A stretch of DNA of 64,000 nt. It comes from Clostridiales bacterium UBA1742. GTDB lineage: Bacteria > Bacillota > Clostridia > TANB77 > CAG-508. Position numbers and translations under genes: made by a program. Within the stretch, counting starts at the first letter, position 1; every line of letters starts with the position of its first letter. This document shows positions 18,351-18,750 of the stretch, one piece after another. The stretch covers positions 7,247-71,246 of the forward strand of contig DCHW01000013.1 in assembly GCA_002314935.1 (NCBI GenBank), given 5' to 3'. The notes under the pieces were generated by a model, which was not told the origin of the DNA, made no database searches, and worked only from the letters and a program-made list of their open reading frames with translations.

Positions 18351-18373
18351 GTAGGGGCGATTTTAATCGCCTG
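18351..18373 (-). repeat. REP-like element, copy 2 (inverted orientation)
   Basis: GTAGGGGCGATTTTAATCGCCTG. Confidence 0.85.
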
Positions 18374-18374
18374 T

Positions 18375-18711
18375 TTAAAAATATTTATCTGTTTGCCAAT
18401 TTATTACATTATTTTGTATATATTCCTTTATTTTTAAATATTCTTTTTCATTTCGTATAATGTGTTCATAAAATAATTTTTGCCATATCGAATATTTTAT
18501 TTCTCTACTTATATTTGTTTTTAGATGCTTTATTATTTTTGATATTGTTGTTTCAGTTTTATAATTTATTAATAATAGAATATGTATATAATTTGGCATT
18601 ACTGCATAATCATCTATTTTTATATTTTTGTATATTCCATCTATTTGGTTTATATTTTGGTTAACAATTTCACCTTCCTTTGTTAATTCTATTTATTGTA
18701 ATAAAATACAT
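18375..18711 (-). pseudogene. REP-associated tyrosine transposase (RAYT / IS200-like Y1 transposase), decayed
   Basis: The C-terminal ORF ...DDYAVMPNYIHILLLI...SIWQKLFYEHIIRNEKEYLKIKEYIQNNVINW matches the Y1_Tnp pattern. The N-terminal MYFITINR lies in a different frame (an indel not at CGG). The HUH motif is degraded to YIH. An N-terminal segment is missing. Confidence 0.7.
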
Positions 18712-18727
18712 ATTTTTTTCAATATCT

Positions 18728-18750
18728 CGGGCGATTAAAATCGCCCCTAC
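18728..18750 (+). repeat. REP-like element, copy 3
   Basis: CGGGCGATTAAAATCGCCCCTAC. Confidence 0.85.

Follow-up and report, generated by a model that had tools for sequence, protein, structure and literature searches.

The Dead RAYT Gene and Its Flanking REPs Are the Core of a Larger Inserted Element in a Clostridiales Genome

At the end of scpA in the window (the whole 64-kb stretch of DNA analyzed here), two inverted REPs enclose the remains of a RAYT-type Y1 transposase gene. An initial annotation had described this block by itself; what it overlooked is that the block forms the center of a larger element that was inserted here and that has outer arms and a target duplication. The element (W1, 18295–18898) is very probably a dead, non-autonomous copy of an IS-like RAYT/REP element of ~780 bp that was inserted as a unit. 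By itself, the dead gene with its two REPs is unremarkable within a known class, one that had not previously been described in this lineage. What is added here is that the unit was inserted, that its ends are defined with a target duplication, and that it stands one step along a decay towards a REP doublet.

An Inserted Element at the End of scpA

The window is 23%–30% G+C, its GC skew is negative throughout, and most of its genes are on the minus strand. The neighbors of W1 are recA, a recX-like gene, scpA, and the spore gene ytfJ. Read in the sense of the RAYT gene, W1 starts 5′ TGTCAAT... and ends ...TTTACTACA 3′. The element and its flanks comprise the following features (strand is given where one is assigned).

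18277–18295: target duplication, left copy, AGAGGTTAATCTCTTGCTT, an exact 19-nt direct repeat (strictly 17 nt, 18278–18294)
18295–18898, minus strand: element W1, 604 nt, aligned with L099 and L098 (both full length) and with W2, a second copy in the window; absent from sister species
18295–18350: 3′-side outer arm, TGTAGTAAATTTATGATAATATCACCTTAGAACTTCCTAAGCAAATATTTCACAT, which repeats the outermost ~60 nt of the opposite arm imperfectly and in inverted orientation
18351–18371, plus strand: REP, an unpaired GTAG followed by a hairpin (GGCGAT/ATCGCC, loop TTTA)
18375–18692, minus strand: RAYT pseudogene, C-terminal frame, 105 codons and a stop, corresponding to residues 45–149 of intact relatives
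18711–18688, minus strand: RAYT pseudogene, N-terminal fragment MYFITINR, in another frame, corresponding to residues 23–28 of intact relatives
18712–18729, minus strand: junction of a ~113-nt 5′ deletion, from the alignment with full-length copies
18730–18750, minus strand: inverted REP, GTAG and a 7-bp hairpin
18751–18837: inner part of the 5′-side arm, with a G+C-rich hairpin at ~18786–18826 and a T-run after it on the minus strand
18838–18898: outer part of the 5′-side arm, an imperfect terminal inverted repeat that ends ...ATTGACA
18898–18916: target duplication, right copy, whose minus strand gives the last scpA codons and the stop (..K A R D *)

On the minus strand the duplicated 19 nt contain the last codons of scpA, its stop codon, and most of the terminator hairpin, and the left copy retains the complete scpA terminator hairpin with its T-run (18295–18272). 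The duplication can be counted as 17 or 19 nt, the difference lying in end bases that are common to the element termini. In sister species (L090 and L093, with ScpA 87%–88% identical to that of the window) the scpA stop and terminator are followed by a short spacer and the next gene, with no element and a single homologous copy of the duplicated sequence. Since the relatives have an empty site with one copy, and an exact duplicate stands at both ends of W1, W1 was inserted here and its target was duplicated. The same W1 junctions recur in four independent contigs that represent this organism in three samples, and the contig breaks fall inside the arms or the REPs, the pattern expected for a genomic repeat. 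No polymorphism was seen at the site, since every same-species contig retrieved by way of ScpA and the next gene carries the insertion. An origin of the 19-nt duplication in symmetric two-strand cuts within the terminator palindrome was rejected on inspection, because the duplicated segment (hairpin positions 1–19 of 24) lies off the hairpin axis.

The arm at 18295–18350 is 97%–98% identical to its counterpart in W2 (61586–61638), and the arm on the other side is 88% identical. When this arm was aligned locally with the reverse-complemented right arm, one of 300 shuffles scored as high for W1 and none of 300 for W2. The G+C hairpin of the 5′-side arm is conserved in W2, L098, and L099, and may serve as a terminator that insulates the RAYT gene on its upstream side. 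IS200 has a terminator hairpin upstream, a possible parallel. Rfam searches of the whole window, and a permissive one of 18200–18950, placed no family in the W1 arms; they did give gathering-score matches to a tmRNA and three tRNA genes elsewhere in the window (978–1332, 1449–1520, and 52602–52798). A small ORF in the right arm (MGEIFANK...) was rejected as coding because it is not conserved in W2. Elsewhere, 42-nt tandem direct repeats (76%–86% identical) run through an apparent minus-strand coding region at 44524–44874.

Identity and Decay of the RAYT Gene

The C-terminal frame (minus strand, 18692–18375) reads IELTKEGEIV...MPNYIHILLLI...WQKLFYEHIIRNEKEYLKIKEYIQNNVINWQTDKYF*, and its 105 remaining codons contain no internal stop. 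The initial annotation had seen a Y1_Tnp pattern here, had proposed a search with PF01797, and had named the lack of any match to a Y1 profile as the result that would count against it. The joined product of the remnant matches Y1_Tnp at 29.6 bits (gathering cut-off 23, profile positions 39–121 of 121), and with a score above the cut-off the identification survived. Among NCBIfam models the best is NF047646 (REP_Tyr_transpos), at 47.4 bits for the remnant and 62.7 bits for the closest intact protein, P0001, against an equivalog cut-off of 80; the IS200 model NF033573 gives 19.8 and 23.9 bits, respectively. The only PDB match of P0001 is E. coli TnpAREP (4ER8), with HUH, WQ..F.EH.IRN, and YI..N in register. 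The remnant keeps the motif of the catalytic Tyr, EYIQNN (EYIQNNVINW), and the WQ block WQKLFYEHIIRN, and the P0001 counterparts of the WQ and YI blocks align with WQPRFWEHAIRN and DYIYINPV of 4ER8. These matches, together with the same REP around orthologues (below), support the earlier view that the remnant is a RAYT-type Y1 transposase gene.

The lesions are of three kinds. In the HUH motif the remnant has N-Y-I-H, the Tyr codon being TAT at 18590–18588 (His to Tyr), where 13 of the 14 intact relatives aligned and 4ER8 have H-x-H; the reading of YIH in place of HIH was thus correct. The conserved Ser of WQKSFYEH has also become Leu. At the 5′ end the deletion of ~113 nt (alignment columns 261–373) took the −10 box, the 5′ UTR, the RBS, and codons 1–22. 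The intact L099 has TTGAAA-N17-TAAAAT and AGGAGG upstream of its gene, and all that is left of the promoter in W1 is TTGAAA, a −35-like hexamer adjoining the REP. Internally, a net 47 nt are missing at ~18690–18697 relative to the closest intact copy, and this deletion shifts the frame. In the protein alignment the first 22 residues and ~16 internal residues are absent, where the loss of the usual first 15–20 or so had been proposed, and MYFITINR was rightly placed out of frame by an indel that is not at a CGG, the cause being the net 47-nt deletion and no single-base slip. With two deletions, a frameshift, and the first His of HUH gone, the gene was justly called dead and, judged by its sequence, can no longer make an enzyme.

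The remnant is 91.8% identical to the L099 gene at the nucleotide level, with a dN/dS of 0.38. Among intact genes dN/dS is 0.10–0.19, so the higher value fits relaxed constraint following a fairly recent inactivation. A tblastn search found no second RAYT copy, intact or otherwise, in the 64-kb window.

The indels at a CGG that the initial annotation had in mind are probably two extra single C's, 13 nt apart, at 26233 and 26246, each of which makes a CGG. They lie in a split minus-strand gene (~25948–26579) for a flavoprotein or dipicolinate-synthase-B-like protein, and when both are removed it reads ...MVVAPCSGNTIGKMANGINDTPVLMAVKSHLRNENPLV... in one frame. The split may be genuine, making this a pseudogene, or it may come from a systematic sequencing error.

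REPs of the Window

The REPs of W1 are an exact inverted pair of the 21-mer GTAGGGGCGATTTTAATCGCC, as had been claimed for the sequences that bracket the minus-strand remnant, and the inverted repeat around them extends to 34 nt at 88% identity (18338–18371 and 18730–18763). The 21-mer has seven copies in the window, versus none expected (100 shuffles). All seven are intergenic, and three of the seven are solitary and remote from the RAYT remnant. Each folds into an unpaired 5′ GTAG and a G+C hairpin of 6–7 bp (z-scores −3.7 to −4.2). The solitary copies are as follows.

14340–14360, minus strand: intergenic
31581–31601, minus strand: 31 nt past the stop of a minus-strand gene
41350–41370, minus strand: 55 nt past the stop of a minus-strand gene

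In all three of these copies the GTAG hairpin is on the minus strand. From the GC skew and gene orientation this would be the lagging-strand template, which with three copies is only suggestive. A bias towards the lagging-strand template is known for single-strand transposition of the IS608 type.

Among copies of the element the REPs are 100% conserved where the adjoining arms are only 86%–95% identical. They are also identical at 21 of 21 positions across species in which the RAYT gene shows a dS of 0.3–0.9 (0.58–0.88 in all pairs but one), which agrees with the earlier remark that the gene is dead and its REPs nearly perfect. A REP that is invariant next to diverged synonymous sites and arms must be either constrained or continually regenerated. 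In a pattern scan of the viral collection the REP itself matched only two contigs.

A Second, Gene-Less Copy

A repeat search revealed a second element in the window.

61586–61914, minus strand: element W2, 329 nt, gene-less, with arms and a REP pair as in W1
61639–61659, plus strand: REP of W2
61750–61770, minus strand: inverted REP of W2

Its REPs are separated by 90 nt that hold no gene, and as single-stranded DNA W2 forms one long foldback (fold z-score −8.7). Direct repeats abut its termini at 61568–61585 and 61915–61932 (14 nt exact, or 16 of 18). The clpC loci of sister species (L096 and L097), compared as empty sites, are not syntenic downstream. One weak similarity, between the W2 interior and the 5′ UTR of L005 (E 0.005, in AT-rich sequence), was put down to chance.

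L099, W1, and W2 form a deletion series with the same termini, of 783 nt (with an intact gene), 604 nt, and 329 nt. W1 and W2 share the traits of MITEs: terminal inverted repeats, a target duplication, and internal loss of transposase-gene sequence in comparison with a full-length copy. Scanning for the arm core as an exact pattern gave zero matches in genome_contigs, metagenome_contigs (scanned twice), and viral_contigs, the pattern of the first scan being one base off the L098 and L099 copies.

Between W2 and a gene for an amino-acid ABC substrate-binding protein lies a long leader (61243–61567) that matched no Rfam family. A strong promoter-like site in this leader (TTGACA-17-TACTAT with TG, 61567–61539) abuts the distal copy of the W2 duplication. 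At the sister-species locus L096 a different GTAG palindrome, GTAGGGGCAAATGCCCCTAC, stands directly after the clpC stop (3953–3974), and may be a second REP type or a REP-resembling terminator.

Intact Relatives and Full-Length Copies

A search of a large protein collection returned 370 homologues, the best of them 149–150 aa long and 74%–81% identical, and identity among intact relatives goes up to 85%; several are named “REP element-mobilizing transposase RayT” by JGI. The 21-nt REP recurs, identical and inverted, on both sides of intact orthologues at 12 or more other loci (genes at L001–L005, L007–L015, L017, L019, and L029), in at least 12 uncultured gut Clostridia MAGs and metagenomes. 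A Y1 gene between inverted REPs had been taken for the classic RAYT arrangement, and the same pair around intact orthologues bears this out. One MAG has two RAYT copies that are 96.5% identical. The plasmid and phage collections yielded only relatives of ≤32% identity. At L012, five tandem REPs in the same orientation, spaced by 46 nt, lie upstream of an intact RAYT gene (1202–1406).

P0001 is encoded on two short contigs, L098 and L099, from samples other than that of the window. Both copies are full length (~780 nt), with arms, G+C hairpin, and termini (TGTCAAT...ACTACA) as in W1, and their 3′ flanks differ. In a second subfamily, an identical 149-aa protein, P0016, is always found on contigs of <2 kb, in a unit of ~640 bp bounded by near-perfect inverted repeats of ~60 nt that include the REP; this unit has at least eight distinct junction sequences on the left and at least eight on the right. 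The flanks of L098 and L099 and the P0016 junctions indicate that members of the RAYT clade of the window behave like insertion sequences. The P0016/P0036 and L010 subfamilies have their own, different inverted arms, which include the REP, and they occupy several sites.

No flanking duplication was found at L002 (a P0036 element, on long contigs), at L005, or at L099, where short metagenome contigs that run through a repeat can pair the wrong flanks. No common tetranucleotide is shared by the flanks of the window, L098/L099, and P0016 copies, in contrast to the fixed tetra- or pentanucleotide beside which IS200/IS605 elements insert. Target duplications read from P0016 contigs were discarded, since the contigs combine left and right flanks in different ways (e.g., L105/L107 and L100/L107). 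Within L100–L109, which carry the identical P0016 element, one left flank occurs with different right flanks and vice versa, and the left-end flank of L109 is the right-end flank of L100 and L107. This mixing is due either to chimeric assembly through the multi-copy repeat or to genuine recombination or inversion among the copies.

Two further REP-bracketed genes, which belong to other subfamilies, have direct repeats around them. At L009, in another Clostridiaceae MAG, a direct duplication of at least 108 nt (768–888 and 1489–1610, 92.6% identical) flanks REP-RAYT-REP, and what has been duplicated is the 3′ part, with the stop codon, of a peptidoglycan-binding-domain gene. At L013, in a Clostridia MAG from rabbit gut, the 14-nt direct repeat TATTACAAAAAATT (1293–1306 and 1945–1958) flanks the REPtron, 45 nt beyond the REP on one side and 17 nt beyond it on the other; the repeat is AT-rich and of borderline significance (E 7.6e-4).

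Comparison with Known Systems

W1 resembles the E. coli REPtron in that the tnpAREP gene, like the W1 gene, encodes a small HUH/Y1 protein between inverted GTAG-tagged hairpins, and in that the REPs are scattered outside genes, most of them a short way past a gene end. In E. coli the gene has one copy and is held to be immobile, whereas W1 has outer arms, a 17–19-bp duplication, and deletion derivatives. The similarity of the window clade protein to TnpAREP is remote (E 1.9e-5), and P0001 falls below the RAYT equivalog cut-off (63 versus 80). RAYTs bind the folded GTAG hairpin on single-stranded DNA and cut and rejoin beside it, as in E. coli TnpAREP.

With the IS200/IS605 elements (IS200, IS608, and ISDra2), the full-length unit shares a Y1 HUH protein of ~150 aa, a length of ~0.7–0.8 kb, hairpins near both ends, and multiple copies. 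The ends of IS200/IS605 elements are not inverted repeats, and insertion occurs without target duplication (PMC2817692). W1 and W2, in contrast, have imperfect inverted arms and duplications of 17–19 nt and 14–18 nt that abut the termini. Since the Y1/HUH enzymes of IS200/IS605 act without target duplication or terminal inverted repeats, the 17–19-bp duplication and the arms do not follow from the mechanism known for such enzymes, and the arm-bearing copies with reliable flanks number only two.

Another parallel is offered by the “TIRtrons” of Di Nocera et al. 2013. According to the available text of that paper, the double inverted repeats of P. putida ppf607 and P. fluorescens pfs4255 flank a RAYT-like gene, join a GTAG unit to an unrelated stem-loop, and are repeated in the genome, though the hosts are Proteobacteria and Acidobacteria. 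As far as its available text goes, the paper describes no empty-site comparison or target duplication, and the words “duplication” and “empty” are absent from the full text. W2 is also like a REPIN (Bertels & Rainey 2011) in being an inverted REP pair that folds into a long hairpin, but it adds arms of ~55 nt and ~145 nt and a flanking duplication, its REPs are 90 nt apart, and it is a single doublet. Duplicates are more frequent in Group 1 RAYTs, which are reported from Clostridia, than in any other true RAYT group, and Group 1 shows some IS-like traits (Bertels et al. 2017; PMC5581495).

How the Unit May Have Moved and Decayed

The full element consists, in order, of an outer imperfect inverted arm, the G+C hairpin, a REP, a promoter and RBS, a RAYT gene of 149 aa, an inverted REP, and a second arm. 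This unit inserted as a whole into the intrinsic terminator that overlaps the scpA stop, duplicating 17–19 bp of target. After insertion the copy probably lost its 5′ UTR, RBS, and first 22 codons, then 47 nt internally, and the first His of HUH mutated, so that W1 is caught while decaying towards a REP doublet. The REPs of W1, W2, and the solitary copies have stayed perfect, presumably because a RAYT provided in trans, at present or in the recent past, uses them as its substrates. We infer that such a RAYT may both keep the REPs intact and move them, and that RAYT itself may move the whole unit.

The last of these steps has a competitor. The arms could come from an unrelated MITE, of which they are the ends, that depends on a DDE-type transposase from another locus; a REP-RAYT-REP block would once have landed inside it and would since have been carried passively. 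Terminal inverted repeats and a fixed duplication of 17–18 bp abutting the termini of W1 and W2 are hallmarks of DDE, not Y1, transposition, and the REP-to-arm junctions are alike in W1, W2, L098, and L099, so that a single capture event would suffice. Such passive carriage nevertheless seems unlikely. The tips of the arms agree at only 8 of the first 12 nt, the window has no REP-less copies of the arms and no further solo ends, exact-pattern scans of three collections found none either, and the P0016/P0036 and L010 subfamilies have REP-including arms of their own, also at several sites. Moreover, we know of no IS family with a regular 17–18-bp duplication. All the same, movement of the unit by RAYT is only somewhat more likely than hitch-hiking.

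Far less can be said for the picture implicit in the initial annotation, in which an immobile, single-copy RAYT gene was inherited vertically and is decaying in place. It has the textbook on its side: the working view of the field is that RAYT genes are themselves immobile (PMC8266576, PMC6006769), with “no evidence of tnpAREP mobility” (PMC8266576), and the available part of another report describes loss of the REPtron by deletion in E. coli strains (PMC3733652). P0036, a close relative of P0016, is likewise found in one conserved context in 23 contigs, on long contigs. But this account is already contradicted by the empty site of the closest relatives, with its one copy of the duplicated sequence, and by the second arm-bearing copy elsewhere in the window; single-copy, immobile behavior also disagrees with the differing flanks of the full-length copies L098 and L099 and the eight or more P0016 junctions. 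We regard it as very unlikely. It is hardly credible that W1 is the remnant of an ordinary IS200-group insertion sequence whose subterminal hairpins were taken for REPs, for although both families fall in PF01797 and the unit is multi-copy and close to IS200 in size (~0.7 kb), the IS200 equivalog model gives 20–24 bits versus 47–63 for the RAYT model, the YI..N signature and WQ..F.EH.IRN align with TnpAREP, and the hairpins are GTAG-tagged, inverted instead of same-strand ends, and present also as gene-remote solitary 21-nt copies.

Returning to insertion of the RAYT/REP element as a unit, a broader reading is possible, if doubtful: that RAYT/REP elements of this gut Clostridia clade are still transposing as units, that they yield REP doublets and perhaps single REPs by internal deletion, and that they insert into hairpin-forming gene ends with long duplications (14–19 bp, and >100 bp in one relative).

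Implications

The insertion of W1 bears on how REPs and REPINs spread and on the supposed immobility of RAYTs. Here a filled and an empty site, exact termini, target duplications, and a series from full element through dead gene and doublet to solitary REP are found together, so that the proposed descent of REP doublets from an IS200-like ancestor can be examined directly. The termini and the GTAG hairpin are concrete substrates for biochemistry. If the arms belong to an unrelated transposon, W1 would be a tidy case of a hitch-hiking REPtron. If the elements are still transposing as units, they would form a still-active link from IS200-like insertion sequences to domesticated REPtrons, and their HUH/Y1 enzymes would use an insertion route unlike the duplication-free “peel-and-paste” of IS608.
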